A stretch of 64,000 bases of DNA. Source: Moniliella sp. 'wahieum' (taxonomy: Eukaryota). Position numbers and translations under genes: made by a program. The notes under the pieces were generated by a model. The model was not told where the DNA came from. It worked only from the letters and a program-made list of their open reading frames with translations, and searched no databases. Positions 1 through 58,378 of the stretch are shown here, piece by piece. Location of the stretch: NCBI GenBank assembly GCA_003971905.1, contig RSEE01000011.1, positions 868,001-932,000 on the forward strand, read 5' to 3'. Positions within the stretch are counted from its first letter, which is position 1, and every line of letters begins with the position of its first letter.

Positions 1-2834
1 GGGTGGTGGTGGAGGGGGCGGTGGTGGTGGCGGTGGTGGCGATGGCGACGGTGCGGGTGGAGACGCGGGAGGCGAGTGGCTCGCGGTGGCCAGGCAGCAA
101 CCAGCAGGACGAGGCGACGGGGGACAGCAGATGAGCAGCGCGTCTGTTCCCACCCTCTGCTCTCCTGCCAGCCTCGCCCGCCACGTCCACACAGCCCCCC
201 TGCCCCCCCCCCCCCACGTGGAGGCATCCACCAGCCAATGCCCTTACGTAACACCCTCCCCTCGCCTCCAGCATTCAACGTTCAACATGCAAGGGCCACC
301 GCTCAACGTTCAACGTTCAACTTTCCGGCTTCAAATTTCAATTGGCACATATTGCACCGATCCCGCCTTCACGCATCACGTGTTGGGACGGCCATCGCTT
401 GGAACACTTGAAATGTAAACCCACCCCCCAGCCGGTGGCGCACATCCGTGGAGCCTGTCTCACTCACCTCCACGTCCTACCCCCGCATAGAGCATCCGCA
501 TCAGAGCGAAAAAAAAGAGAAAAAAGAAGGTCGCGCCCACACCCACACCCACACTCCAACGACCGTTGGGACCAAGGAACGAAGCCGAGATGTGGTGCTT
601 CTCGCTCAAGAGCTTCCACGTTTCTCCCTCGCCCAGTAAAACATGTCAAAAAGCTGTAAGCACACAATACGAAACCGGTCGGGGCTCTGAGCTCCTGGCA
701 GATTCTGTCCCACCGCCGCGCGCCGGAGATGTGTGTTGTTCTAGTTGGGTTCGGTTCCATACGGGCGGATACGTTCCGATGCCCAGTGCCCCAACCGAGG
801 CACCTTAGGCCTTATTAGGTCAACGTTCAACTTTTCTAACTCCCAGCACTCACCGGTCACCACGTACTGTTCCCCGAGTTTTCAGTCCTTGCAGGTCCCT
901 GCCCTGCGAGCACGGAAGCTGCTCCGGCTCGAGATCGGTGGTACAGAGCTGCCGTTAGGCCCTAGGCTCAAAGGGGAAGCTTTTCGGAGTAAGGAGGAGA
1001 GGGTCTTGCTTGGTATGGAGGAGAGGGACTTACCGCTGTTGAGTCCCTCCGTACTGCGTACAGAGAATCACACCAAGAGTTTTGTGTGCATCTTTTTGGG
1101 TTGCTACTGCCCAAGCCCATGTGTCAGGCAGCAGGCACCGTGCGGAGAAGAGACTATTGCGCAGCACTGGCGCGGCACTGGCGCGGCTACTTTTGAGAAT
1201 CCGTGGATGCTCGTAACGCGTAACGCCTAACAGCTAAAGTCTATTACCATCTACCGCCTAAGCCCCTGAGCTTGTCTGCACGTCACCCATTATCGAACCC
1301 CAGTTCTATACCCGTCGGATCTCTGCCCCGCTTCTTTCACACCATTGTCAGAACGAAATGGAGATGCGAGCCCGTCGAAATCAAGTGGAGGGGTGCGCCA
1401 TGGAGCGCATATTGCCAGCTCAGCGCTCAACGTCATATACCAGCCCCATGTTGCTGTTGTTTTGCTCGGCTCAGCTCCGCGCGTCAAGTCCGGGCGGAGC
1501 GGTCTAACTGCAGATCGGAGTTGATGCACAGTGTTCCTACTTTCGTAATAGCAAGGCTCGAAGCGCCATTCACCGTTCACGCTTCAAGAGCTTCAAGCAG
1601 GCTCGCGCTCAAGCTTCAAGCCACAAGCCACAAGGACCAATCACTAAAACCACGTTTTTTTCAACGAGCGCGGGTTGGCGCCAGTTGAGAATTGGCGGGG
1701 TTTGTGTTGGTTGCAAAATGCGTTGCGGCTCTGGGTCGTGCTCATTGATGGAGATGGGTGAAGTACGGTGAATATACTACGGTACCTGCCGAGTCAGCTA
1801 TTTTGGCCAGGTAACCTACCCAGACTGGGTCGAGATTGGGACGGAGGCTGAGGGCCTGAAGCTCACATGCTCACGCTTGCGAATGGGACCAGCGCAGCCA
1901 GCTATATATCTCCAGGGAGGGGGGGATGCACTAGGGAGCTGTGTGTGTATAGATGGTCCGCTGGCTGTCTACTGTCTTGGCCTGTGGGGTCGCAGCTGGC
2001 TCCACGTGAATATGCACACAATGTCAAAATGGATTCATTCAGTAGACCCGGGACAAGTACCAAGTCCTCCCAACTCGTGCCACATCCAGGGCCAGGTGGC
2101 AGACAGCGCGTCGCTCCCATCCAATAGAGGCACCTGGGTCTGAGGACCGGTGATCCGCACCTGATCCCCTTTCTGACTGTGAGTACAGTGTAGAGAGTAT
2201 TGATCGGATCTCGAAATGCGCTGATCTATGGTGCGCTACACCCTTGTCCTACCGTGCTGCCTGGCTCGTTGGCAAGACCCTGAGGCCTGGGCGGAGACAA
2301 CCAGAAAAGGTCGGTTGATTAGGTCGAGGCCAGGTTTAACAATACGTTTATGGCCACCCACCTTGCAGAACAGCCAAGGCAGCAGAAGAGGGAACAAACG
2401 AGTGTGGGCAATGGCATCGTCGCCGAAGAGGGGCGGAGGCAGGTCAACGGGGAGAACAACAAGTTGGATTCAGGGAGAGGAGGGCAGGGGAGTGGGTATG
2501 CAGATGCAGATGCGGTGGAAAGGTTGAACGTTGAGCGAAGTCGTTGGCGTTTTTGAACCCTTTGGGTGGGAAGGGTAAAGCGTCCGAGGGGATGATATGC
2601 AGCGGGCGGAGGCGAGGGGGCGTTCATGTTCAAGCGCCAAACGAACAAAAGAACAAAAGAAACAGAAGGAACAGGGGAGGGTGGCGTAGGCGTTATTGCA
2701 GTTGTACTTGTAGCACAGGGGGTGGGGTGGGGGGTCGGACCGCGGCGCATCAGGACAAAGCGCGCATGAACACCCGACTGCGAAGAGTGACGGGGCGCCG
2801 CTGGTACACACACACCCATGCACTTCTGTTCACC

Positions 2835-3083
2835 TTACGGCTCGAGGCAACGTACGCCAATGAGGGAGTGGTGACAGGAGGTGCATTCGTTGAGGCGGAC
2901 GATGATGTTGTCGCAGTATGGGCAGCGCACGTACGGGCCCAGCGCCATGTCGACGAGGGCTGGGGAAAAAGAAGGGGAGAAAAGCAAATGTTAGCCGACG
3001 GACCAGCGCCAAAAGGCATGCAGGGGAGAATGGGAAGCGAAGAAAGACGTACGCTTGTTGATGATGAAGGTGCAGGCAGTCAT
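2835..3083 (-). CDS. Small spliced Cys-rich zinc-ribbon-like protein (51 aa), unknown function
   Basis: Exon 1 is 3083-3053, the 93-bp intron is 3052-2960 (GTACGT...GCTAAC...pyrimidine tract...CAG), and exon 2 is 2959-2835. The splice gives 156 nt in frame: MTACTFIINKPLVDMALGPYVRCPYCDNIIVRLNECTSCHHSLIGVRCLEP*, with CxxC-x9-CxxC. ATG context is AGCATG. The spliced form is absent from the ORF track. Confidence 0.62.
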
Positions 3084-3702
3084 GCTGGTCGTGGTAGCAG
3101 TCAAGGGCAGAGGGGTGGGCGTTGGTGGTGGTGGTGGTGCGGAAGAGAAGAGGGAGGATGGGAGCGGGGATGGTGTGTGGCGCAGGGGGGCGCAGGGGCG
3201 TTTTAAATGGGCCGTGTCTGCACGCGGGGTTGGCGGGTGGGCTGGGTACGACGCGGGTGCTTGACTCAGAGTGCCATCGGGCGCCATCTGTGTGCTGGGC
3301 AACAACAGGTGGTGGATGGAGAGATGCATGATGCATGCCTCATGCCTGATGCATGCTGAGCCAGAGCGCTGCGCAGGGGCACTGCAGCGCACTGCGCACG
3401 GGGTCAGCCAACCTGAGCGCCTGAGCCTGAGCTGTGCAAGGGATGGGTGATGCACGGCGGTGGGTCGGTCGCGGGGGACAAGCAGTGTGGCGTTGGCTGG
3501 CGCTGGGCCTGGCCTGCGCCGCGCCTGCCCCTTGCAGCCCACACGGGCAGGCACGCTGTTCTTTGTCCCTGCTCTGCTCTTTCTGCCGCGCCGATCGCCC
3601 GATGCATTCAGCCGTCCATGCGATGCGCATGCCTCTCCCGCACGCCCTCCCGTGGCCTCCACACTACCTCCACACCGCCACCACACATCTATATCACCCC
3701 TC

Positions 3703-3942
3703 TGTTGGCCTAGGGAGCCGGACGGGCAGAAGGATGAGGAGAAGGTGATGGATTGGAGCCAGAGTTGGGTCTGGGTACAGAGGCATCTATATAGGAGGCT
3801 GGACTAGGCACAGGGACAGTGAGTCACACAGGAGAGAGTGCAGGGCACAGGGACAGTGACACGCAGGGACGTCAGCGTGGAAGCCGATGGAACCGAGGCG
3901 AACCTGGTCTACCGACTGGGAGCCAGAGGATCACAGTCAACA
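3703..3942 (-). repeat. 3' LTR (family A)
   Basis: Base-for-base identical to 4883-5122. Contains a CTATATAG TATA-like box and a duplicated GGCACAGGGACAGTGA motif. Confidence 0.95.
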
Positions 3943-4660
3943 CCCCCGCTGGCCAGGGAACCCGGAGACATCGGTTGTGGGATGAGCTCCTGCCAGTGGA
4001 TGTAGAGAGGGGAGGACTTGAGTGGCAACCGGGACGAATGGCCTGGAGTTGTGCATGGCCACACGACTGGCCTACACCCCCGCTGTCCAGGATGACACCT
4101 GAACGAGCCGAGCGCTTGTGGTTGGTGTATTGTGCGACCGCCAGATGCTTGTAGAAGTCTTAGAAGTAAAAGTAGTAGGGGTTGCGCCCCGAAGCGATTT
4201 GGTGGGCAAAAGTAAAAAGCACCAGTTATAGGTGTAGTGAAAGAAAATTGGAAACTTGGAGTAAATGCGGTCCAAGGTCGTTTGGCATCAAAATTTGATG
4301 CGTTTGGTAGTTGTTTGGTTCCGCATGCCTGGTGCCAGTGGGGTCCATTGGGCATGGGAAATGAACGGGCGCTATGCGTCAACCGTCTTGATCTGTTTGG
4401 GTTCTCTTTGTTGTTGAAAAAGAGGAGTGGAAGAAGTTGGGTGACCACCCCCCCCCATCCTTTCCCCAGGTGCCCCGGATGAATTGGCAATCCGGGCGTG
4501 TAGCCGTGGGTGGGGCACTTGATGAGCAGCCACCCCCGCTTTCTGCGATTCGCCTGCGCCGTTTTGTCGTTGGAGGAATTTCGTCTCGTTGACGATACCC
4601 GACACGTTTTGTTCCGTCGTGTGTTGTCCCTAAAAATCATTGCCCCATCTGTGGGGGACG

Positions 4661-4760
4661 AGTGTGCCGATTGTGGCGGTAGTATGCCGATTGTGGCGGT
4701 AGTATGCCGATTGTGGCGGTAGTATGCCGATTGTGGCGGTAAGGTGCCGATTGTGGCGGT
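4661..4760. repeat. Minisatellite, 5 x 20 bp (AGTATGCCGATTGTGGCGGT), inside the LTR element
   Basis: Three perfect and two slightly variant copies read directly. Confidence 0.95.
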
Positions 4761-4868
4761 GGTGTTGTTGGGCGGGAGGACGGGTGTGTCTTGTGGGCTT
4801 GGCGGCTTAGCTTGGGCTTGTAGGCTTGGGGGTGGGCTTGCTTGAAGAGCGCTCCCCTTCCGGGGGGA

Positions 4869-4882
4869 TCAGATTGTAGCTC
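4869..4882 (-). other. Putative primer-binding site (non-canonical, anticodon-arm-complementary)
   Basis: GAGCTACAATCTGA immediately follows the 5' LTR end (CAACA) on the minus strand. It has no TGG start, and its complement reads as a stem, 7-nt loop TTGTAGC, then TC. Confidence 0.5.
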
Positions 4883-5122
4883 TGTTGGCCTAGGGAGCCG
4901 GACGGGCAGAAGGATGAGGAGAAGGTGATGGATTGGAGCCAGAGTTGGGTCTGGGTACAGAGGCATCTATATAGGAGGCTGGACTAGGCACAGGGACAGT
5001 GAGTCACACAGGAGAGAGTGCAGGGCACAGGGACAGTGACACGCAGGGACGTCAGCGTGGAAGCCGATGGAACCGAGGCGAACCTGGTCTACCGACTGGG
5101 AGCCAGAGGATCACAGTCAACA
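4883..5122 (-). repeat. 5' LTR (family A)
   Basis: Identical to 3703-3942, with TG...CA termini. Confidence 0.95.
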
Positions 5123-6825
5123 CCCTCATTACACCACATCGCCGCATTGCGTGTCTGTCATCGCTGTGACCCATCGGCCATGAACCAGCGTCTCAGCGCT
5201 CACCGCCCTCACTCAGGGGCCAATATCCAATGCTGTTCGTAGGCCAGCTGTGCACCGACACTCGCTCCCCTTTTCACACTGTCCTTCCAACACGCTCAGA
5301 GCTCACTATTCAATCCCAGCCCGGCACAAAGCCACAGCCAGTCACCACCGGACACGGTCCACCGGGAGCTGCGTATACTCTCAGATCTCAGACCTCTCTC
5401 CGCCCGCGCCCCTCGGCCAAACGTCAGTACTTGAGCGAGTAGCCGGAACCAGTGCAACACATAATGGAGTGGCCCTTGTAATCGTGTAACCAACACGTAA
5501 CTCCTGTATCTACCCCACAGAAGAAACGTCCATCTCCACATTGTATCCACCTCGTCAACCGGACTGCATAACGCGTACCCGCGTACCCCACCGAGGCGAG
5601 CGAGCGCCAAACTGCTACTGAACTCGTCCCAAGAACGTAGGGAGAGAAGGGCCATCTAAAATGGTCTTGGCGAACGCCGGTTGAACGTTGAACACTGCAC
5701 GTTGGAACGCTCAGCCTGACTCGGAGCCCTCAGCGCCTCAGCCCGGGGACCTGTTTAGCAGCCACTGCTGAGAGTACGGTGATCCGGCGTACTGAACCGC
5801 GTTGAACGCGCTGAGCACTGAACGCCTCCATCTCATGCATCATGCCGGGCAGCTGTCATGCTCGGGATCTGCATCTGCAGGAACGTGAGAATCTATGGAA
5901 AATGGAAAACACATGCGTGGCCAACAAACGAACTATACTCTCTGTGCTCGCCCATAACAATGCCGGTTAACCTTCCCGCCGGCATGTTCAACCGCAAAGG
6001 CAGGGACCGGCTACCTTCGGGCCTCTGTCCTCCGCACGGCAACAGGCCATCGTGTTTTGACACGCCGTACGCGCAGCGCAGCCTGTGCTCAGTGCTCAGT
6101 ATGCTCGAACCGCAGAACAGCCCATGGCGCACAACAATGGACAGCACACAGCATTGCATGCTGTACACAGTGTCTTCAGCTTTTTTTGTGTCGTTTTTCT
6201 CACATCTCACATGCATCACATCTCAGATCTCACATGTCACGCTGTCTCCGACACACCCACACACTACAGACTGTACTGCCGCAACAAATAAATCCACATG
6301 GGCGGGAGGCAAGGAGCATGTGGTCGCGGTGCCGATGCTCGATGCTCGATGCTCGATGCTCGATCCTCGATCAGATCTCAAACGAGCGCGAGGCCGGAGC
6401 GAGGGAATGTCAAGATCTCTTTCGAGGAGAAAACATGTACGAAAGGGGGGCGCGGCGAGCACCGATGGCACGTACGCGAGTATGGAAATGAGAGAGGGCC
6501 AAAACCCAAGAAACAAAAATGGGAGTGGCGCAACTCAACATGTTCCCCATCAACGTTCAACTTTTTAACTTGCACGTTCAACGTTGCTCGTCGCACGTTC
6601 ATGGCATCATGGCTAGTCGTAAAGATATGGGAGGAAGGGGGGGGAGAGAAGGGGGGGGGGGGGGGTCCGACGTCATCCCCGAGAAACTCAGGGGGAGGAG
6701 AAAGGAAGGAGGGGAAAGGATCGCGTCTTCGGTGCCTATCGCAGCAATGGCAGAAGAGAAGGCGGAAGGCGGAAGGGCACGAGGAGGAAACCCCACCGAG
6801 GAAAAATCAGTGCTCAGTTGAGCGC

Positions 6826-13176: not shown

Positions 13177-16036
13177 ATGGACCATCCGCCCCCCCACTCG
13201 CCCACCCCGCCGCCGAGCCGTCGAAGCGCGTGCGCATCGGCTCTCCGGAGCCCGCGTCTCCGGCATCTCCAGCACCTCCTTCCGACCCCCAGGGCGGCGC
13301 CATGGCCGCTGCGCTCACCCGCCAGGCCGACAAGAAGGCTGTGCACGAACGGACGTGGGCGTGGAGGAATACCTCTCCTCCCAGCTCGCGCCGTTCCCGC
13401 TGTGATCAAGCAGCGTTTTCCGACTTTCAAGTGCGCGAGATCACCTTTGATGGGCAAATCTGTCGTCTGACAGCGGACGATCTGCTGCCCCCGCCCGGCC
13501 CGCTGCGCCAGCGCCTCGAGCGCGAACAGGCTGAGTTTCTGCATCCTGAACTGGTCCAGGAGCGCTGGCCAAGGAACAGGCCGAACGCGACGCTCGTCTT
13601 TCTGCTACCCAATCCTTCCTCCACCAACGGGCTTGGCCTGACGACGCACCGGCCCGCCTTGCCGCGGACGGGTGGAGCGAGCGGGAGATACAGCAGATCC
13701 ATGATCTTTGGCTTGCGGGGCCACTCAAACCGGGTCAAGGCCAAGGAGCGAATGGGGCGGGCGATCCGCCAAAAAAGGAAGAGGAAAGCACGACGACGGC
13801 CCCCTCGGCTGCTGCCGCGCCGGACGCACGGGGGAAACGCACCAACAAAGGCAAAATCAACGCAAACCCTCTGCTCCTGTCGATACGCGTGTCGTGCTCT
13901 GTCGCACGTACATGGACCGGGACATGCGTACTGCGGCGCATGCAACGATCCGGAGCCTGTTCCGAGAACACTTGACTTCGTCGGCCGTCACTGCGCAGCA
14001 AGCCAAGAAGTTGGATCCAGAGATGGAAGTGGAGGATGCGATTCTGAATGCGCCAGCGGACAATGGCAATGTGCCCCAACCATTTTTGACACTGCGATGG
14101 ACCAAGGGGAAAGTGGACAACCGTCGTGTCACCTCGTCTGACGAACTGGCAGCCAACCAAGCCCACCCGCCATTTATCACGTTTCTGCTGCAAAAGACCA
14201 ATCGGGAACTGTACGACGCAGCGGGCATCTTGACGCGCAACTTGGGCATGCAGCACAAGAGCGGTACAGTCACCCCTGCTCTCGCCTTTGCCGGGACGAA
14301 GGACAAGCGAGCGGTGACCACACAGGCCGTCACATTCAAACGGGGCAAGAAGACGGTAGAAGATGTGTACCTGGCGCTGAACCGGATTCTTGCACCGCAG
14401 CATTACCGTGCTGGCCAGGCCGGCCGCGACTCGGCGGGGCGACCGACGAGCCACAAGAGGAAAGGTACCGGTCCCTCGGACAATTGGGACAAGGATCGAA
14501 CGAGCTTGTTGGATGCCCTGACGCGGCGGGCGCCCAATGCGGTCCGGGTTGGCCGTTGGCCTATGTGCACCAAGAACTTCGACTTGGGTTTCTGCAAGGC
14601 AACGAGTTTGTCATTACGCTGCGCAATGTGAGCCGCGTCCAGCCAGGTGGACTGGGCGCCACTGCCGCGCTAATCCGACGATGCCAACGCGAGGCTGAGG
14701 CCGAGGCCGAACCACAACCGAGGTCGGGGTCGGAGGAGGAAGCGGCGGCGTCGGACCCCGAGTTGGAAGGGTTGGTGGCCCAAGCGATCCACGCTGGGAG
14801 AACAAGGGTGCATCAATTACTTTGGCTGCAGCGGTTTGGTACGACCAACGTTTCGACCCATGCGATTGGCGTGCTGATCTTCAAGGGCGACTACAAGGGC
14901 GTGGTGGATCTCATCATGGCCGACCGCATCACCGACAATCCTACCACCGCCCAGGCCCGCGCCGAGTACCGCGCGGGCAACTTGCAAAAAGCGTACTATG
15001 GTCTACCTCGCTCGTACGTGGGCGAGCGGGCGATCGTAGGACGCATGATTGACAATGAGCGCGCGGACGGGAGCACGATTGGTTCTTGATCCTCCAGGGC
15101 GTCGCGCGCAATTTGCGCATCATGTACTGCCATGCGTACCAGTCGTACGTGTGGAACAAGTGCGTCTCCGCTCGTCTGCGACGGGGGCGCAAAGTGATGG
15201 TCGGGGACTACGTCTTGGCTGATAAGCACGCGTCCTTGTCTGAGGAGGATGTCGATGGGGGCGACGCTGCTGCCGATGACGAGGAGGAGGGGGGGGGACG
15301 GGGGGAACCAACAGAATCCGACCCAGTCAATCCCAATGCCAAGAAAACCGACCGTCCCTCACTCCCGGCAGTCAAGGTGTTGACAGAGCAAGATGACCTG
15401 TCGCAATACACGCTGGCGGACGTGGTGATGCCCATGCCCGGGAGCGAGGTGCGGATCCCGGAGGATACGTGGCTAGGCCAAGAACTGGGACGGATTTACG
15501 CGTCGGATGGGCTGTCGCAACAGAGCATGTACTCGTCCGATTGGAAAGAGTACCGTATGCGTGGTGTGTACCGCCACATGGTCACTCGACCTCGCAACGT
15601 GCGCGCCAAACTCATTCGCTACACCGATCCCGAAGTCGACTTGACCGTCTCGGACGAAGATGCGGCGCTGGCACAGTTATGGCAGGACGGGCTCAGGGGC
15701 CCGTCCAACCCCCCCATTGACCCCACGACAGCCGCTGCGTTGGCGCCGCCGCCGCTGGGCCAAGCCGAGCTGGTCACAGAGGGTCAAGGGCCCTTCTTGG
15801 CGTTGCAGCTGGTGTTTGAGCTGCCCGTGTCGACGTATGCGACCATGGTGCTGCGAGAGGTGCTCAAGTCGGACACATCGCCCGAAGTGCAGCGCTTGCT
15901 CACGCTCAGCGGCGCCGATCGCAAGTATCGTGGGATGGGCCAGGATGCCCACCTCAAGGACGAGTCGGACAAGGACCCAGAACAGGGTGCCACACAACTT
16001 TCTACCGAGCCTCCCCGCCTGAAAGCGAGCCGCTAG
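13177..16036 (+). CDS. PUS7: TruD-family pseudouridine synthase Pus7
   Basis: Motifs FSDFQVREI, FAGTKDKRAVTTQ (catalytic Asp), GNEFVITLRNV, LQRFGT, MYCHAYQSYVWN, FELPVSTYATMVLRE, pieced across frameshifts. Confidence 0.93.
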
Positions 16037-42911: not shown

Positions 42912-44340
42912 GGTCGATGCTTGAGCGGAGGAGGCGAGGACGGTGGGAAGGAAGATACGCGGCTGGAGAGGCGGATACGCTGTTGAAGAGACGGATACGG
43001 TGGTGGAGAGGAGGAGAAAGGTGGCGGGCAGGTGTGGGTACTTCTAAATGGATCGGGGGGTTGGGGTTGGGGTGCCATTTGGCCAAAAATAACCACATGA
43101 GATGGCGAAGTGCGGACAGAGAAGCGGGCCTGGTGCGTGTGATGCATGTGGCATGTGACATGTGATGTCTCGCCCATGTCAGACATCCCGATCGGACGCC
43201 TTGTGTCTTTGGGTGCGGGGGGTGGACATGGCAGGGGGACAGTGTTGCAGTTGATTGCGGGGGGTAGGCACTGGGCCACAAGACGGTTGTGCCGACGTCT
43301 GTCGGAGCATCGGTTTATCATGCATGATGTATGAGCAATGACGCAGATGTATCATCGGTCAGCGGTCAGCGGTCATGCCCTTCAAGCTTCAAGCTTCAAG
43401 CTTCATCATCGATCGTGGGAGCTTATATGCGCAGGCCAGGCAGGAAAGGCAGCCTCAGCTGCCTCAGCGCCTGGACACTGAGACCTAGTCTTGTCTGAGT
43501 GGAAGCTCAAATGAATCAGTGAGACCTGCCCTGGACTGCCACCCCGTCTCACGACCCTACTTGATCGTATTCATAATCCACAGTGAAGAAGAGGACAGGG
43601 GTGTCTATATACAAGGAAGAAAGGGGGGTACATACTTGAGACAAGTCGCATGGACCTGAGAATACTATATGGACAGGAGGAACTAACAGGGGATCGAAAT
43701 CGGGTTAAGGATTCAGTTCGCTTGGTGAAGAGATACATCACTAGGTGCGCGTCAGAGCCCCACAAATAAGCTGGTCGCCGTTTCACAGGGCCACAGGATG
43801 AAGTTACACGGATGTATGCTTGAAAATGGACCTCCTTTTATATTCAGACTCAGTAACTGAAGACAGTGCGTTTTGCATTTGGAGGATCTGTACGAAGATG
43901 GACGTCGAACAGCACGCTGCTGATGATTTCCAGAATCCCGGCTGTAATATCGGGCTATCAGTTTTGTTCATGCGCTTTTGAAAGAGCTTTCATGTACTCA
44001 ATTCCTGCAACAGAAATGGGTACCAGCACTCAGTTTGGAGCTTGAATATGGACATGGCCTAGTAATATCCACGATGAAGGGAAGTGTTGGGAAGTGTTTA
44101 TTGTTTTGAAGGCCCATAAAGGAATCATTTCTCCGGTACGAGAGAGGGAGAGGGCCCTGAATGCAGGACACGCCTTTCAGGATGTATATTTGGCGCTTTT
44201 GTGCTCGGGCTGGCTGTGTTTAGCTCGATTCTCCTCCTGGTCAATTTGTGCTTCCCTGCAGACGGCACACACTCTGATATCCGCCAAACCTCCGGCGTGG
44301 GCAAGGTAATATAGCACCAACTTTTATATATCTGTAGTGC

Positions 44341-44660
44341 TTCATGCACTCCTTATTTCTCTGCACCACACCACTGTGGCACTCACATGAACATCTCACA
44401 CAAACACACGGACGGAGACGGAGAGATGTTTATAGAAAGGATTCGCAAAAATCAACACACTGGCAAGGAGTGTGGCCTATACAGACCTGCATTCTATGAG
44501 CCAAAAAGTCGAAGCTATTAACATGCATCAAATAAGTTAGAAAGGGAAGGATGAGCCTTATGCCGCTATGGGCGAGACGAGTCTTGAGCCCAGGATTGAA
44601 GAAAGATACGAAAGGAAGGGAACCATCGATAAGAACCACAGTTTTTTGTTTGCCGTTTTT
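44341..44660. repeat. Diverged dispersed repeat B, copy 2
   Basis: Collinear with 41458-41890 in the same orientation. Confidence 0.8.
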
Positions 44661-44817
44661 GTTTCTTCTTTTTTTTTTTTTTTTTTTTCTTTTTTTCTTT
44701 TTGAGCTTCAAGCCGAATCAGTCAAACAAACTTGGGTCTCAGTCGCGTATCTCTTCGCCATATTGTAAAAGAGGGCGTGGAGCGATTGCTATCGCACCCA
44801 CGGATGCAGCCGTGCGA

Positions 44818-46244
44818 TCAAGGGGGCATGCCCGCGTCATCCCTCACGAACTCCGTCGGGAAGAGGGCCGGGAGGTCAAACTGATCCCAGGCAAGCTCCA
44901 TCTCTTGCATGGGGTCCGAGAGAGGGGGGGTTCAGTATTACATCCGTGGTGGTGGCCAGGGAGTCAACGTTGAGAAGAGTCTCAGTCGAAGCAACGGTTT
45001 TAAAGTCGAGTGGAGCAGGTTAGAGGCTGCTACTGGGCTGGGACCGTCGGTGGCGAAGCGGTGGTGTCAAGGGAACGGAGCAGATGCTCAGTTAGAGCAA
45101 TGACCACAGGGTCGTCGATGAGGGGGATGGAGTCTGCTTCCAGACCTGGGACCGCAGGGGGGGATTCGGACTCGGAGGAGCTCGACTGAAGACGCTTGGG
45201 GGGACGACCACGGGGCCGCTTAGACACAGGCTTGCCAGGGGGGTTGGAAACACTTCCCTGACCCGATGCGGTGGTAGGAGGCGAGGAAGATAAGGAAGAG
45301 TTCGTCTGGAGCTTGCGAGGACGGCCGCGGGGCCGCTTAGGCGCAGGCTTGGCTGCTTTCTGTGCAGTAGCTTTGGGAGGCCGTCCCCGTTTCTTAGGTG
45401 GCGACGGAGGGGTACCCTTTGTCACCGTATTCTGTGGGTTGGCTGGCCCCGCCCTGAGCAGGGGTTGATGTGGGGGAAGAAGAAGGAGGCCTGGAAGAGG
45501 TGTACCCGCATAGTTCTTCGAAACCAGCATTGGGAGAGGTCTTGATGCCTCCGGTGGAGACAGTGCAACTGTAGGCACTTTTCCATTCGTCAACGTAGTC
45601 GCGTACTCCGGAGCCAAAGCAGTACTGCCCATTGGTGAAAGGGAGTCTAAACACGGTCAGAATCCTGTTCGAAAAGAGAAGATAAGAGAGGGAGGGAAAA
45701 CTTACCATTCGCGCCTGTGGTAGGTGCGTCAAACCAGAGCGGAGGAATGGAGGTGAGGTTGGTTGGGGCGATCAATCCGATCTGGGGTGTGAGCGCGGGC
45801 GGGCTGGGTGCCAAAGCCTCGTCCTCACCCCGAGTCGGCAGCGAGGAGACTTCTCCCATGAGCGACGTGACATAGCGGTGCAGCTCCCTCTGTTCGTTCG
45901 ACGTGATGGGCCACAGATCGTCCAAAATCAAGCAGAGTGTATGACTGCCCTGGACATCGTCTGACGGGAGAGAAACGGGTCCACAAGGACAGAGTTGGCC
46001 ACCACGGAAGCCAATCGCCAATTGCCAACGACGAGTGCGTTGGTGTTTGCCTGAGGGGGGGCATTTGGACGAGGCGCGCGAGGCGGGAGAGGGACTCAAC
46101 GGGCAGGGACTGCTCGTAGGGATGAGCAAGGTGGAGATGGGCGGGAATGCTGCTTGCGGTCAGCCGTGCCCCATGGGCGATGGGACCCGTGGGAGCGTGG
46201 GAGAATGTCAAGGGCAGAGTGTTGAGCGCGTGTTCGTAGGACAT
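44818..46244 (-). CDS. AT-hook protein (3 AT-hooks, acidic tail)
   Basis: AT-hooks KKRGRPPK, KRPRGRPRK, KRPRGRPPK. Intron 45705-45647 (GTAAGT...CTGAC...TAG). The acidic/aromatic C-terminus QEMELAWDQFDLPALF is reached via frameshift. Confidence 0.7.
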
Positions 46245-47993
46245 AGTGGCGAGCGAGAGGAGCTCAGGGTGGTGGGTGTGAGGAAGGGAGTGCGGGAGGC
46301 ACGGTCGACCGAGAGGGGCTGGGTATTTATTGGAACATCAGTCTCGCAGGTGAAACAGAGGGGGTGCGACGGTGTGGGCATGGCTGTGGCCTGTTGCTGT
46401 TGTTGCTAGTAGGCTTGCGGTGATTCTGCTCCATGTGGCCAGGCGGCTGCTCGAGGTGGGAGGACGAGGGCGAGAGGGAGAGCGGCTGGTGGTGAGCAAA
46501 TCAGCCGGGCCGGCCAGACGCACTCTCGATCCAAGCCATAAGTATCGTATAAGCGAGCTTTGCTGCAGGCTGAAGCTTGAAGCCTGGCCGCCCACTGCTG
46601 CTGGCTAATTATATAATAAGCTTGGGCAACCCTTCCTCCGACCAATCGATCAGCGATCATTAACATTAATCATTAATCACCCACTCATCGATTCGTACTT
46701 CGTGTACGGTCGCCGGTCACGCCCGGTCACGCATCATGCACTGGTGATTGCCATGAGCGATTGGCGGCTCCTTAGCCCTTATGCGACTACTCGCGCCAAA
46801 CGAGCGGATCGTCTTCATGTGGTGTCACATGTCACATGTCACATGTCACTGCAGGCCACTTCTCCCTTCGACCTCCGCGCACTGCACCACTGAAAGCAGC
46901 GGCGGCGATGAACAGATGGGGTCTCAGATGAGATCTCAGCTTCTCAGCTCTCAGCCGCTTTTGCGGGGTGGGCAGTGTCGCGTGGTGCTGCCTCGCATAG
47001 AAGTAACTAGTTTACTACCTAGTAACCCCCACCCAGGGCGGTTGGAGTGTGGTGGCATGTGGCACCACTTGGTGTGATGGCTGGATCGGCCATGTCGCTG
47101 GCAAGCGGAACTGGCTATAGAGTTCCGCGACTCGCCCGCTCCGGATTGGTTACCGTCGCGCCCTCGTTCCCCCCTTCCTCTTCTCCCTGTTGCATTGAAG
47201 GTTATTAGACTAGCGTCAGGAGCTTACAAGAAGCTATCTCTGACTGTTCCCACCCTGCACAGTGCAATCGTCCTTAGCTTGATAGCGTATCTACTTCTCA
47301 GTTAACGGACAACCGCGGTTCTGGGTTCTCACCAGTGGTGCGACCGATTCATCGCGCTCACCCATTCATCGCCCGGTCTAGTGCTTCGCTCTAGCCCCCA
47401 CTCTTTCAGGGCGGCGTGTTGGGAAAAGTTGCGAATACGAGGGCCTGTGCGCACTGGCGCCGTGCCTGTGCTGCCAGCGCCCTATTTGCCCTGTGGGCGT
47501 GGAGATGGCCAAAAAACGCGGGGGCTGTCGTCGGCGATGATCGATGATCGATGATCGATGACAGCTAAGCTTAGCGCTAAGCCTGAGGGCTTAGGTTAAG
47601 CGCTAATAGCGCATGTCCCCAATAGTAACATGCACGTCACCTCCGACCGAAAAGTGTTCCTGTGATGTTTTCACAGACATGTGGCGTTCCAAATTCCTTG
47701 ATAAGTTGGAAGCTTAAAGAAGAATATTATATAGTGACTTCGTTTCGCCAAACCACCTTATCCGGATCACCACCAACCACCATTTCCATTTGCTGCTCTC
47801 TGATCTTGTCTCGGAGCGTTATTAGGTCGAGATTGCATCCATGTAGAGCGTAGCAGATCCTGAGAGCTGTTTGATATACGCTCTGGGGGAGAATAAGGAA
47901 AACGACGAGCAACACAGTTATTTTGTTTTGGCAATCGCAATTTTGAGATTAAAGAACAAGCAGTGTTTGCAGAACAGGAGAGTGGACCCAGAG

Positions 47994-48248
47994 TGTTAGA
48001 GGGTGCTGCTAGGGTTCTCCTGCGCGGCCCTCAATGGATCGGTGACGCTCGCCTAGCCGAGCGGAAGCGTTCCGCTCGCAGGCCGCGCACGCCCTGCTCA
48101 CTCCATCTCCCTTCTCTCTCTCCTTTCTCCGTCCCTTCAGACGTTGCTTGAAGACTTGTGGCTCACCACTTTGCCTTCACGCCTTGTCTGAAGGCTGCTT
48201 TGCAGCTGATCCATAGGATCGCGAGTGCTCCCAAGTTGCACTCTAACA
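47994..48248. mobile_element. Solo LTR, second family (255 bp)
   Basis: Termini TGTTAGAG...CTCTAACA (8-bp inverted repeat) flanked by a 5-bp duplication CAGAG (47989-47993, 48249-48253). Confidence 0.85.
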
Positions 48249-48409
48249 CAGAGGAGTCAGCGCTCAGCATTAATCCCTCCGCTCCGATCACAAGGAGAGT
48301 AAAACGAGGGTAGTCACGAGTGTCACAGTCGGGGCTAAGGCGAGGGAGACCAGATTCGGACTAGGCCAAAAAAGGGGTGCAGCAATCGTTCGTGGGGAAG
48401 AAGCAAGAA

Positions 48410-48497
48410 CAGAGGACATGGTGCGAAGCGGAAGAAACAGGGAAGGAGCGAGACGCTCGAGACGAAGAAATTGGAAATGGGAGCGAGATCAGCCAAA
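48410..48497. repeat. Diverged dispersed repeat C, copy 1
   Basis: CAGAGGACATGGTG...GAGCGAGACGCTCGA...GAAGAAATTGGAAATGGG.GCGAGATC shared with 55971-56063. Confidence 0.8.
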
Positions 48498-51497
48498 CTA
48501 TGACAACGAGTAACGAGTCGAGGAAATGGAGAGGGCGCCTCGGACAACGGCTTTCAATCTCCCAGCGCAAATACCCTTATCGTTCAAGTCCACGGCCAAA
48601 TTACATGATTCTGAATGCTGTTTGATCCTCCAAAGAGTTTAACGTTGATGGCGTTGATGATCTACGGGCTGGCTGTCGTGATGCGCGTTTGTAGAGTTGC
48701 AAGGTCTTCTTCAACAGTTAGCATTTTCCCAGTCTCCTATTCAGTCGTACGCGTTATGGCGCTCTGACATTTTCTCGGTTCGACTTTTTTCGTCCCGCCA
48801 TCCTAAAGGCGCTTTGCTGCTTGCTGTCCTTGGAGGTGTTCTTGGTTGGCGTTTAGACCATCATCGCTACCACCGCTAGTGCGATTGCATCTTCAAGCTT
48901 CACCCTCAATAAACAACGGCCATCGTAGCTCCACAGGTCTCGGCGGTAAATTACACCGACCATGGTTTAATTTCAACATTCAACTTTGTTCAAACGTTCA
49001 ATGTCCAATGCTCAATGTACAGGCGGAACTGACATTTCCGCTCCATTGGCGGAATTGGATTGCAGCGAGCTGGACGGAATGAATTTTGTTCTCCACTTGC
49101 TCGGGCTATATAAAGGCCAGCGCAGCCGCGCACGTTTTGCTTTCTTCTTCATTGTTTAACAAAGTAAAAAAGGTCCTGCGTACTTTGTATTGCCTTGACC
49201 TTTCTGTGGTCGCTGGCGTACATGCGGGACCGAGAAGGACGCAGTCCACTCTTTGGCAAGCCTGCTCGTGCTGAAAAGCGCCCTTGCTAGCTGAACTTGT
49301 CACCTGGTGGTCCAACATGCTTTTGGCATGTCTCGACGTGTCGCCGATTCTGGAATCCATTTCGTTTCCTTCCTGTGCATGTTTCCTCATTGGTAGTCGT
49401 GAGTGCGCCGAGCAATGGCGCAGCGAGTGCCTGCCATTCATCGCGACCAACCACAACGAAGACGCCTGCGAGGCACGCTAGTGATGCTAGTGACGCTTGC
49501 AAAGGATCGACTGACAACCGGCTCGACCAAACTATACACAAGGTAACAAGGAGCCAAGCCAGAGGCAAAACGGAATCCAAGAAGAAAATGCATTAAACAA
49601 AATGTACCAAGGGGTTGGCCTAGGCACCCAGACCCATTGAGCAGACGCGTGCAAAAAAGCCCCGTCCATGGACCAGGGCGCCATGCCCCAAAGGACATTG
49701 CCAACCCGCAAGGACGATATCTGGTTGAGTATGACACAAGTGCTGACCGTCTTTGAGCGGCCGCCCGCATCGAAGTGAGGCAGCCGCCGTCCTTTCTACC
49801 CTGCCTGTCCTTGCCCTAGAAGGGCAGAGGATAAGCGAGGAGGACCGGCACAGTGCTCTTAAGGCTCAACGGGATGGGTGAAGCTAACGATGCTGCAGAC
49901 AAAAAGAGCCGAGGGCGAGTAGAAATGCAATTTCTGCTGTTGACATTCGAACGAAGAGAGAGAAGGTCAGCTAACTCATTCGTCTCAAGAAAGGTGCACA
50001 GGCACTCGTGACGGCTCAGAAGGCAAAGTGACGGCATCAATGACTGCCCCCACGAGGAAGAGCAGACCTTGAATCAACGGAGGTGCCAGTTAATGGGGCG
50101 CTAGATGCGATGAACGCAATCTGTCCTGCGCCTATCATCACAGCCGGAACAAACGGGAGAGGCGACTCAGTACTCACCCAAGTTGGTCGGTAGGGGAGCA
50201 AGCCAGAGAGCTGACTTGGGCCCCCTGATATTCTTCGCGGCAGGCGCGACCTCCTTCTGCAACTTTGAACCACAGTTACGGACCCTGCTGCGGCACAACC
50301 CCAGCGACCCGGAGGTAGGGTTAACCCTATGGCCTGCTTCCCCCGGATTTACAATGCAGGTCCTCAAGCCTCAGTGCCTGATGTCACAGGCCTAGCTAGC
50401 GATGCTGGCGATGAGGGATGGAGATGGCATTCAAGAGCTAAGGAGACTAGAGCTATGGGCCTTTAGGCTCCTGGCTGGAGGCCAATGGAGGCTCGTGGAA
50501 GGTCCGAAACTCACTGCCCCGGTGCACTGTGTGCATCGGGCCACGTGTCACTGAAGGCCGATGGGCTCTAGACTCCACTGGTGGTCAACACCTGAGCCTG
50601 CATGATTAGATACCGTTGAGACCAAGCCTGAGCTGCGGACTGCCCACTGTTACCGTCTCAAGCACCACGGTGCCCAACAGACCCAGCCTTGTAGGCTCCA
50701 AGGTGCGCCAGGTTATGCCTGCATTGGTGTTTGCCATCTGCTGAGAGATAAAGCAGGTTGAGCTAGAGACCAACATGTGAAAAAAGGCAATGCATCCGTG
50801 GTTAGATCAATTAGATCGGTAGACCCCACCAGCCGCGCTAGCAAGAAACTCTATTCCCCCCTAGCTGGCGAGGGCCGTCTCGAGCCCACGAGCCAGACGG
50901 GCAACTGATGGAGGTCTCCCACAGCCCTTTCCTCATGCCCTCCCTCATCGCCTCGCCTTTGTTCTGATTGCGTCGCCAGGCTCACAATTTATGAGAGGTT
51001 TCGCCAGCTTGCCAACTATGTTTGTTCTCGCTTCTCTCTCGATCCGTTTTGATCATCACAACGAAGAAGTGAGGCAGCAAATTTGGCATGCGGCGTAAGA
51101 TGGCAGATAAAATTAACGTAATTGACCATCGAACGAGATCATGCAGACTCATGCACATGCATCAAGACAGGGCCACAACGGGCCGTCAATATGGTGGTAG
51201 GTCGAAGAACAGGAAAAGATCTCACGTTTTAACAAGCTGATCAATGGGCATGATGAATGAGAGGAGGGGCTATCGCCAAGGCACTGCCAAGGACCACACA
51301 CCAATGTAGTACCGCGTGACACGTGAGAGCAGATTCTTTTAAAGGACAAGGGAGAAGAGATAGGGCATTGCTGGAAGGCGTCGATGCCCAATCTTGCGGG
51401 TATGGGCTTGCGAAAGGAAACAAGGGGGGGGGGGGGTGATAAACGGGGGGCCCAGAGGGGGCTCCAAAGGAGGCTAAAAGCAAAACCGACAACAAGC

Positions 51498-57355: not shown

Positions 57356-57482
57356 ACTACGGTGAATGAGGACCGACACGCTCTGTGATGGGCGTATGCC
57401 AGGCAATGCAATGTTGCATGTGTGTTCCCGCATCATTACTACAGGCACTGGTACGGGAAGCGCTATGTAGGAGGGGTCTTTG

Positions 57483-57722
57483 TGTTGACTGTGATCCTCC
57501 GGCTCCCAGTCGGTAGACCAGGTTCGCCTCGGTTCCATCGGCTTTTTCCAAGCTGGCGTCCCAGCATGTCACTGTCCCTGTGCCCTGCACTCTCTCCTGT
57601 GTACTTACTGGCCCTGTGCCTAGTCCGGCCTCCTATATAGATGCGTCTGTACCCATACCCAACTCTAGCTCCAATCCATCACCTTCTCCTCCCTTCTGCC
57701 CGTCCGGTTCCCTAGGCCAACC
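57483..57722 (+). mobile_element. Solo LTR of family A (older copy, inverted relative to 3703-5122)
   Basis: 240 bp, with about 13 substitutions and 3 small indels versus the paired LTRs (hand count). Terminal CA mutated to CC. 5-bp TSD CTTTG (57478-57482, 57723-57727). Confidence 0.95.
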
Positions 57723-58378
57723 CTTTGGGTAGCTTTCGAAGGCCATGGATTATGTGTGCATTATGTGTGCGGTATTTCCGAACAATGAGTTGCTCTTATA
57801 TTCAACACGTTCAACGGTTCAACGCCTGACCTCTCTTAACTGAGGCCTTGCATGCCTATAACGTTGACATGTTGACAACCCCCACCACGCCCATCCTGGG
57901 TGTTTTTTTGCACGTGGGCGCATGCAGCTCTCGCCCGGCGTTTCGCTCGAGGGATGAGAAGCCAAAAGAGGGGAGAGGAGCCAATGGAGGGAAGACAAGA
58001 TCCGGACCCGCTGACGGATTCGACAACGAGATGCTGTTTGAGGGTGCCGACGTTCGTCCAGCACAATCCATTCGTGTCGAGTGAGTGAGGATACCGCGAA
58101 CGGCAGACCGAGGGGCCGATGGCGGAACTCGTTGTACTACACAAAACGTTGCGAAAAAGTATGGTTCAGATAAGCAGCAAGGCGGGAGGGAAGGGTGCTG
58201 CGTGTATGGTGGAAAGAATGGGATGGTGTGAAAATCCACTCCACTTCACCATCCCCTTCTCGTCTCGGGTCCACTTGGACTGCCGACCGCCGGAAGGCCT
58301 TCCGCCTCAGCCGAGCCGTACAGAATGCGACGGGCTGTAGGTCCGCTCTCCCCACCGCCTCCGCGGTAGCCATCACGC

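Follow-up and report, generated by a model that had tools for sequence, protein, structure and literature searches.

Genomic context and host affiliation

The window, by which we mean the whole 64-kb stretch of DNA that was analysed, is gene-dense and has a G+C content of ~60%. The best named relatives of an AGC-kinase ORF in the window were all members of the Ustilaginomycotina (Tilletiaria, Violaceomyces, Tilletia, Pseudozyma, and others, at 70–73%), and an eIF4E ORF was nearest to those of Meira and Tilletiopsis. Judging from these encoded proteins, the host is a Ustilaginomycotina-like fungus. The stretch at ~43400–51100 is ORF-poor and has a lower G+C content (0.53–0.56), and its 39 ORF pieces of at least 80 amino acids gave only a weak AT-hook match. 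ARAGORN identified no tRNA gene in the 64-kb window (0 hits), and Rfam at the gathering level identified no tRNA or other RNA family there. A gene for a TruD/Pus7-type tRNA pseudouridine synthase, in three reading-frame pieces, lies at 13705–16033 on the plus strand. Yeast Pus7 modifies U35 of pre-tRNA-Tyr, and the presence of a Pus7-type gene in the same window as the Tyr-like primer site described below is taken as a coincidence.

A short non-coding LTR element and a solo LTR

Positions 3703–5122 of the window contain a 1,420-bp LTR element that is non-coding and TRIM-like. Its two LTRs (3703–3942 and 4883–5122) are 240 nt each and 100% identical; on the plus strand they start with TGTTGG and finish with GTCAACA, giving TGTTG...CAACA termini. 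The element is flanked by a target-site duplication, CCCTC, with the left copy at 3698–3702 and the right copy at 5123–5127. In the proposed minus sense, the 240-bp repeat at 4883–5122 is the 5′ LTR, which abuts the candidate primer-binding site (PBS), and the 240-bp repeat at 3703–3942, which reads TGTTGAC...GGCCAACA on the minus strand, is the 3′ LTR. Between them lies an internal region of 940 bp (3943–4882, minus strand), which was classified as non-coding from ORF and family searches. At its two ends, both on the minus strand, are the candidate minus-strand PBS, GAGCTACAATCTGA, at 4869–4882, and a candidate polypurine tract (PPT) and plus-strand primer site, CTGGCCAGCGGGGG, at 3943–3956, directly upstream of the 3′ LTR.

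An internal open frame of 319 codons is of low complexity and has no family match, and none of the 11 ORF pieces of the element matched a gag or pol family (E ≤ 1). Moreover, no reverse transcriptase (RT), integrase, or gag domain was found in the 203 window ORFs of at least 130 amino acids, which means that the helper element must lie elsewhere; the ORF-poor stretch and the rest of the window likewise contained no remnant of an autonomous element. Five 20-bp units form a tandem array at 4661–4760, in the leader region of the element, and this array is one unit shorter in a near-identical metagenome contig, indicating that the copy number of the 20-bp unit varies. Each LTR also contains ~3.5 copies of an 18-nt unit (3809–3870 and 4989–5050), which in the minus sense are located just upstream of a TATA motif and resemble the enhancer repeats of a U3. 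With one mismatch, the PPT-plus-TG motif recurs as CTGGACAGCGGGGGTG on the minus strand at 4075–4090, 134 nt into the element, with TGTAGGCC coming after it; this copy may represent an internal PPT or what is left of an earlier LTR junction.

The identity of the two LTRs indicates a recent insertion; the element at 3703–5122 is young and belongs to the non-autonomous LTR retrotransposons of the TRIM type, although its 1,420 bp sit at the upper end of the size range for which that term is usually used. The identical LTRs also suggest that members of the family may still be able to move. At 57483–57722 on the plus strand stands a solo LTR from this family (92.6% identity), flanked by a CAAAG duplication (57478–57482 and 57723–57727); its terminal TG has mutated at the first base, to G. 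Because this solo LTR has its own 5-bp duplication, the same LTR borders were fixed independently, and the solo LTR and the full element together represent at least two insertions of the family in the 64-kb stretch, at different times.

Position and shape of the candidate primer-binding site

On the plus strand, positions 4869–4885 read TCAGATTGTAGCTC|TGT, and the minus strand reads ...ACA|GAGCTACAATCTGA (4882–4869). As the sequence-only reading had stated, no TGG follows the 5′ LTR on the minus strand, and the canonical PBS, which pairs with a tRNA's 3′ end, is therefore absent in this orientation. The complement of the site forms a hairpin in which the pairs G30:C40 and A31:U39 enclose the loop TTGTAGC, and the TG of the LTR itself adds two further stem pairs. 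When the complement is read as tRNA nt 27–40, the implied arm is UCAGAUUGUAGCUC, consisting of a stem, a 7-nt loop with U33, the anticodon GUA, and a purine at position 37, and two stem bases. The anticodon-arm shape proposed earlier, which ends two stem bases past a 7-nt loop, was thus recovered.

We defined rules for an anticodon arm ending at nt 40 (two stem pairs, Y32, U33, and R37), and these were passed by 0.63% of the 127,974 14-mers in the window. When primer ends from nt 38 to nt 43 were compared, only nt 40 gave U33, R37, Y32, and two of two stem pairs, with the anticodon GUA. The half-tRNA geometry claimed for the site was therefore upheld, and it equals that described for hemiviruses in the available text of PMC1181622. 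GAGCTACAATCTGA was unique in the window at up to two mismatches (one match; shuffle mean, 0.20). Taking position and shape together with the conservation described below, it is very likely that GAGCTACAATCTGA functions as the PBS.

A stretch across the LTR junction at 4870–4905 on the plus strand, GTAGCTC|TGTTGGCCTAGGGAGC, resembles a tRNA D arm with a box A. This D-arm-like stretch (GTAGCTC|TGTTGG...GAGC) was considered as a candidate and rejected, since Rfam gave no tRNA match at E ≤ 10 and the LTR start differs in the relative described below; we treat the likeness as a coincidence with the common TGTTGG LTR start.

Conservation of both junctions in a diverged metagenome contig

Contigs of three metagenome runs, which hold small shares (0.10–0.14), were aligned to window positions 2500–6500. 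Among the sequencing runs listed, none of those holding the element was an RNA run. In the three runs, several short contigs matched parts of the element almost perfectly. Among them, a contig of 151 nt spans 4862–5012 and has no listed difference in the site, but it may derive from the same locus, so that the independent conservation of the site comes from a single other contig. Records 1, 4, and 5 of the contig alignment were set aside, being 18–36 nt long, GC-rich or mismatched, and off the junctions; they are probably chance matches.

The independent contig, of 5,089 nt, touches the 4-kb stretch at two places only; both matches lie on the same strand and show 0 differences. In the first match, window positions 4869–4886 correspond to contig positions 160–177 (18 nt), and the match ends exactly at the 14th internal base of the element. 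In the second, window positions 3936–3956 correspond to contig positions 4998–5018 (21 nt). Both matches are LTR/internal junctions, and they are ~4.85 kb apart in the contig. The shared sequences are thus GAGCTACAATCTGA plus TGTT at one junction and CTGGCCAGCGGGGG|TGTTGAC at the opposite one, whereas beyond TGTT and GTCAACA the LTRs of the contig differ from those of the element, and the interior does not align either. The ends of the contig would add up to an LTR of 241 nt (4 + 159 + 71 + 7), which fits a repeat assembled as a cycle. This relative looks like an autonomous-sized element of ~5.1 kb with LTRs of ~240 bp, which is the size of a Copia element. Exact sharing of the two junctions by such a diverged contig argues that the PBS and the PPT are cis sites under selection. 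The sequence-only reading had proposed a check of the site in sibling elements, and this relative has the exact 14-mer.

In a scan of metagenomes with the pattern ACAGAGCTACAATCTGAT, eight loci were found, all in unrelated phage or bacterial coding sequences and none with an LTR; because ACAGAGCTACAATCTGAT includes base 4868, which is outside the block common to the relative, relatives may have been missed with this pattern. A scan of IMG/VR with the site returned three unrelated loci, and a phage collection gave no match. In prokaryote genomes, the 16-mer CAGAGCTACAATCTGA occurred at at least 120 loci, and none of the matches listed has a tRNA over it, a result that says no more than that such an arm is uncommon in prokaryotes. 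Among the matches listed, CAGAGCTACAATCTGA recurs in many genomes of Clostridia and other bacteria with similar flanks (e.g., GTTC...TCCC), which suggests that these flanks belong to a conserved coding motif unrelated to the element. The 13- and 14-mer were not found as text in the papers searched, in either DNA or RNA letters, and a literature search of limited power gave, among the papers listed, no report of this PBS type for the Ustilaginomycotina.

Priming mechanism and alternative explanations

The reading that best accounts for the site is half-tRNA priming from a Tyr-GUA anticodon arm, to which we give a probability of roughly 60%. According to this reading, transcription of the element would run from the window's minus strand, and an autonomous relative of copia size would mobilise it in trans. 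GAGCTACAATCTGA would anneal to nt 27–40 of a spliced, mature host tRNA cut in the anticodon stem, and RT would extend from the 3′-OH of nt 40 into U5, as in hemivirus-type half-tRNA priming, with CTGGCCAGCGGGGG (3956–3943) acting as the polypurine tract. We infer the orientation, the Copia affiliation, the identity of the tRNA, and the point of cleavage from the sequence. Tyr-GUA would be the most likely isotype, as the only one that pairs perfectly. Nevertheless, the implied loop bases U32, G37, and C38, together with nt 27–28, differ from the tRNA-Tyr arm implied by the PBSs of Puccinia elements. With such unusual loop flanks, either the loop of the tRNA-Tyr in the host would have to be unusual as well, or the isotype would have been called wrongly or another RNA would prime.

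That the site is a PBS but the primer is a different one is unlikely, although several features speak for it; such a primer could be tRNA-His-GUG, pairing through a G36:U wobble, tRNA-Thr-UGU if cleaved after nt 41, a 13-nt 5′ tRNA fragment, or a non-tRNA small RNA. The flanks U32, G37, and C38 are unlike those of the Tyr arm implied by published fungal PBSs, and flanks of this type are typical of eukaryotic tRNA-His loops. The nt-41 register keeps U33, R37, and an anticodon, UGU (TGT in DNA letters), but it has A32 and only two of three stem pairs. Simple criteria for the 5′ end and D arm of a tRNA (U8, R9, G10, and Y11) also fit the 14-mer, as they do 1.44% of 14-mers. However, each cycle copies the PBS anew from the primer, and a wobble in the PBS of both a young element and a second family is therefore unlikely. 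The stem-proximal bases A29, G30, A31, U39, and C40 are the same as in the published Tyr-type sites, and priming by a 13-nt 5′ fragment is without precedent in the parts of the literature that were available; for these two reasons, the 5′-end/D-arm register ranks low. It is distinctly improbable that the primer is something other than an ordinary tRNA-Tyr half in the particular sense that a cytoplasmic host tRNA-Tyr with an atypical anticodon loop (U32, G37, and C38) is tracked by the elements, or that a 13-nt 5′ fragment or another small RNA is used. If a 13-nt 5′ fragment (nt 1–13 of a tRNA starting with C and cut in the D stem) or another small RNA did act as the primer, this would be a mode of priming for which the available parts of the literature held no precedent.

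Half-tRNA priming from the Tyr-GUA arm also depends on the direction of transcription. The plus-strand primer of an LTR element is an RNase H-resistant purine tract abutting U3. The octamer that precedes the LTR is AGCGGGGG in the minus sense, with seven purines of eight, whereas the plus sense gives TGTAGCTC, with three of eight. The minus-sense LTR has its 18-nt repeats at positions 73–134, upstream of TATATA (150–155), and an 85-nt stretch that is 68% pyrimidine downstream of TATATA; the plus sense would place the repeats in R/U5. Furthermore, the primer strand of the minus sense passes the tRNA rules, whereas that of the plus sense, CTGGCCAGCGGGGG, passes none of those tried. These features make it highly probable that the minus strand is the sense strand. 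Transcription of the plus strand, with CCCCCGCTGGCCAG... (TGG 8 nt past the left LTR) as the PBS and TCAGATTGTAGCTC as the plus-strand primer site, is unlikely. The TATA motif is palindromic and hence compatible with both senses, and TGGCCAGGGAACCCGGAG at 3950–3967 does open with TGG and, read as a tRNA 3′ end, would place a C at position 61. However, only 7 nt of this TGG stretch are kept in the 5.1-kb relative, where the match ends at 3956, and TGTAGCTC would be a very poor PPT. The primer strand of the conserved block in the plus sense fits no tRNA rule, and the tRNA implied by the TGG stretch would begin with C and carry G73, which is atypical. Annotation tools that seek only TGG-type primer sites will mis-orient or miss elements such as this one.

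We regard it as highly improbable that the arm-like shape arose by chance and that the 14-mer has no priming role, being perhaps a relic next to the LTR. The shape rules are loose, given the 0.63% of 14-mers that fit, and hundreds of chance matches of 18 nt are estimated for a 4-kb query against 2.25 billion letters. On the other hand, fewer than 0.01 contigs are estimated to have two exact, co-linear, same-strand matches of 18 and 21 nt like those at the LTR borders, even when the junction positions are left out of account. In addition, an active-looking element with identical LTRs requires a PBS at precisely 4869–4882. Finally, Tf1-like self-priming, in which an element's RNA folds its own 5′ end onto the PBS and cleavage of that end yields the primer, needs ~11 nt of complementarity between the two and is close to refuted: the site does lack TGG, but the longest pairing of the 14-mer with the whole LTR is 6 nt (G:U allowed), a length of at least 6 nt being reached in 374 of 500 shuffled LTRs, and a second family with different LTRs has the same 14-mer. 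The pairing of the site with the RNA 5′ end of the element, named in the sequence-only reading as an outcome that would overturn it, was thus not found above the shuffled level.

Comparison with known priming systems

Two systems were considered and rejected. MRC1 of Chlamydomonas, which came into question first on account of the G+C content, has terminal repeats of ~600 bp around ~420 bp (PMC5576905), as against repeats of 240 bp around 940 bp here, and the present host is a fungus. In the available text of PMC10886601, the fungal hosts of Helenus are Pucciniales and a few Agaricomycetes. A Helenus affiliation was rejected because the LTR contains no tRNA-like pol III module (ARAGORN, 0 hits; Rfam, no match on 3600–5250 at E ≤ 10); a box-A-like TAGCTC..TGG straddles the junction, and no GGTTC box B follows it.

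The available text of PMC6317226 describes self-priming of the Tf1/Sushi type as known and predicts it for 12% of plant elements. The element resembles Tf1/Sushi in having no TGG-type PBS, but its best pairing of 6 nt is at the level of the shuffled controls. The same source reports a PBS for half tRNA-Met in the plant lineages Osser, Bryco, and Gymco-II and for half tRNA-Ile in Bianca, and half-molecule primers are reported there as exclusive to Ty1/copia. The element would share the use of half-tRNA primers with these plant Ty1/copia lineages, whereas the isotypes and the kingdom are different.

In fungi, internal PBSs for tRNA-Arg(UCU) and tRNAiMet have been described in Candida (PMC4139406, available text), a source that also gives TGTTG...CAACA termini as typical of Ty1-like elements. 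Tca2 (gamma) of Candida albicans and related families have a PBS against an internal part of a non-initiator tRNA, tRNA-Arg(UCU), and the site here would likewise pair with an internal tRNA region; Tca2 differs in its isotype, in its host phylum, and in being an autonomous element of 6.4 kb. In hemiviruses, cDNA synthesis starts from the 3′-OH of nt 40 (PMC1181622), and the primer ends in the anticodon stem according to the ICTV profile (PMC8515867), as far as the available parts of these two sources go. With the hemiviruses of the Pseudoviridae (Ty5, copia, 1731, and Osser), the element shares a PBS that lacks TGG and fits a primer ending at nt 40, together with its TGTTG...CAACA termini and 5-bp duplication. 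However, hemiviruses use tRNAiMet, whereas here the anticodon position reads GUA and the copy has no genes.

The closest counterparts are in the rust fungi. The available text of PMC10886601 (Kojima 2024) describes anticodon-loop PBSs for tRNA-Tyr-GTA in Copia and TRIM families of rust fungi, including Copia-50_PHord, which uses the tRNA-Tyr loop, and it reports Asn once. The Tyr-GTA type is stated to have arisen several times. According to the same text, the primer tRNA genes carry introns, which implies that the mature tRNA serves as the primer. In the accessible part of its supplement, all 10 occurrences of GATTTACAG open internal-region consensus sequences of Puccinia families, reading GATTTACAGTCT(T/C)G; these ten consensus sequences begin with GATTTACAGTCTYG. 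Set against this Puccinia Tyr-type PBS, GATTTACAGTCTYG, in the same register, the site studied here agrees in 9 of 14 bases (tRNA nt 40, 39, 36–33, and 31–29), and the nine agreeing positions cover the anticodon, U33, and the loop-proximal stem, whereas the five differences are at nt 38, 37, 32, 28, and 27. In both cases, the PBS is 14 nt long, starts from the first internal base, and consists of GA, a 7-nt loop complement containing TAC at the same position, and TCT. The published Puccinia elements also have 5-bp duplications, LTRs that start with TGT..., and G-rich tracts before the 3′ LTR, and, as in the published system, the short non-coding TRIM here would have a partner of Copia size whose LTRs are dissimilar.

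Since Tyr-type anticodon-loop priming is in print, the mechanism proposed here is not a new one. The sequence-only reading had presented a half tRNA-Tyr-GUA primer as a new variant, and this claim of novelty fails against the published Copia and TRIM families of rust fungi (PMC10886601, available text), whereas its interpretation is partly supported, by the position of the site, by its geometry, and by the lack of pairing with the LTR RNA of the element itself. If the match to a host tRNA holds, Tyr-type half-tRNA priming would occur, beyond the rust fungi, in a lineage of yeasts or smuts that is Ustilaginomycotina-like, and the element would add to a picture in which fungal Copia elements change freely from one anticodon-arm primer to another (iMet, Arg, Tyr, Ile, Asp, and Asn).
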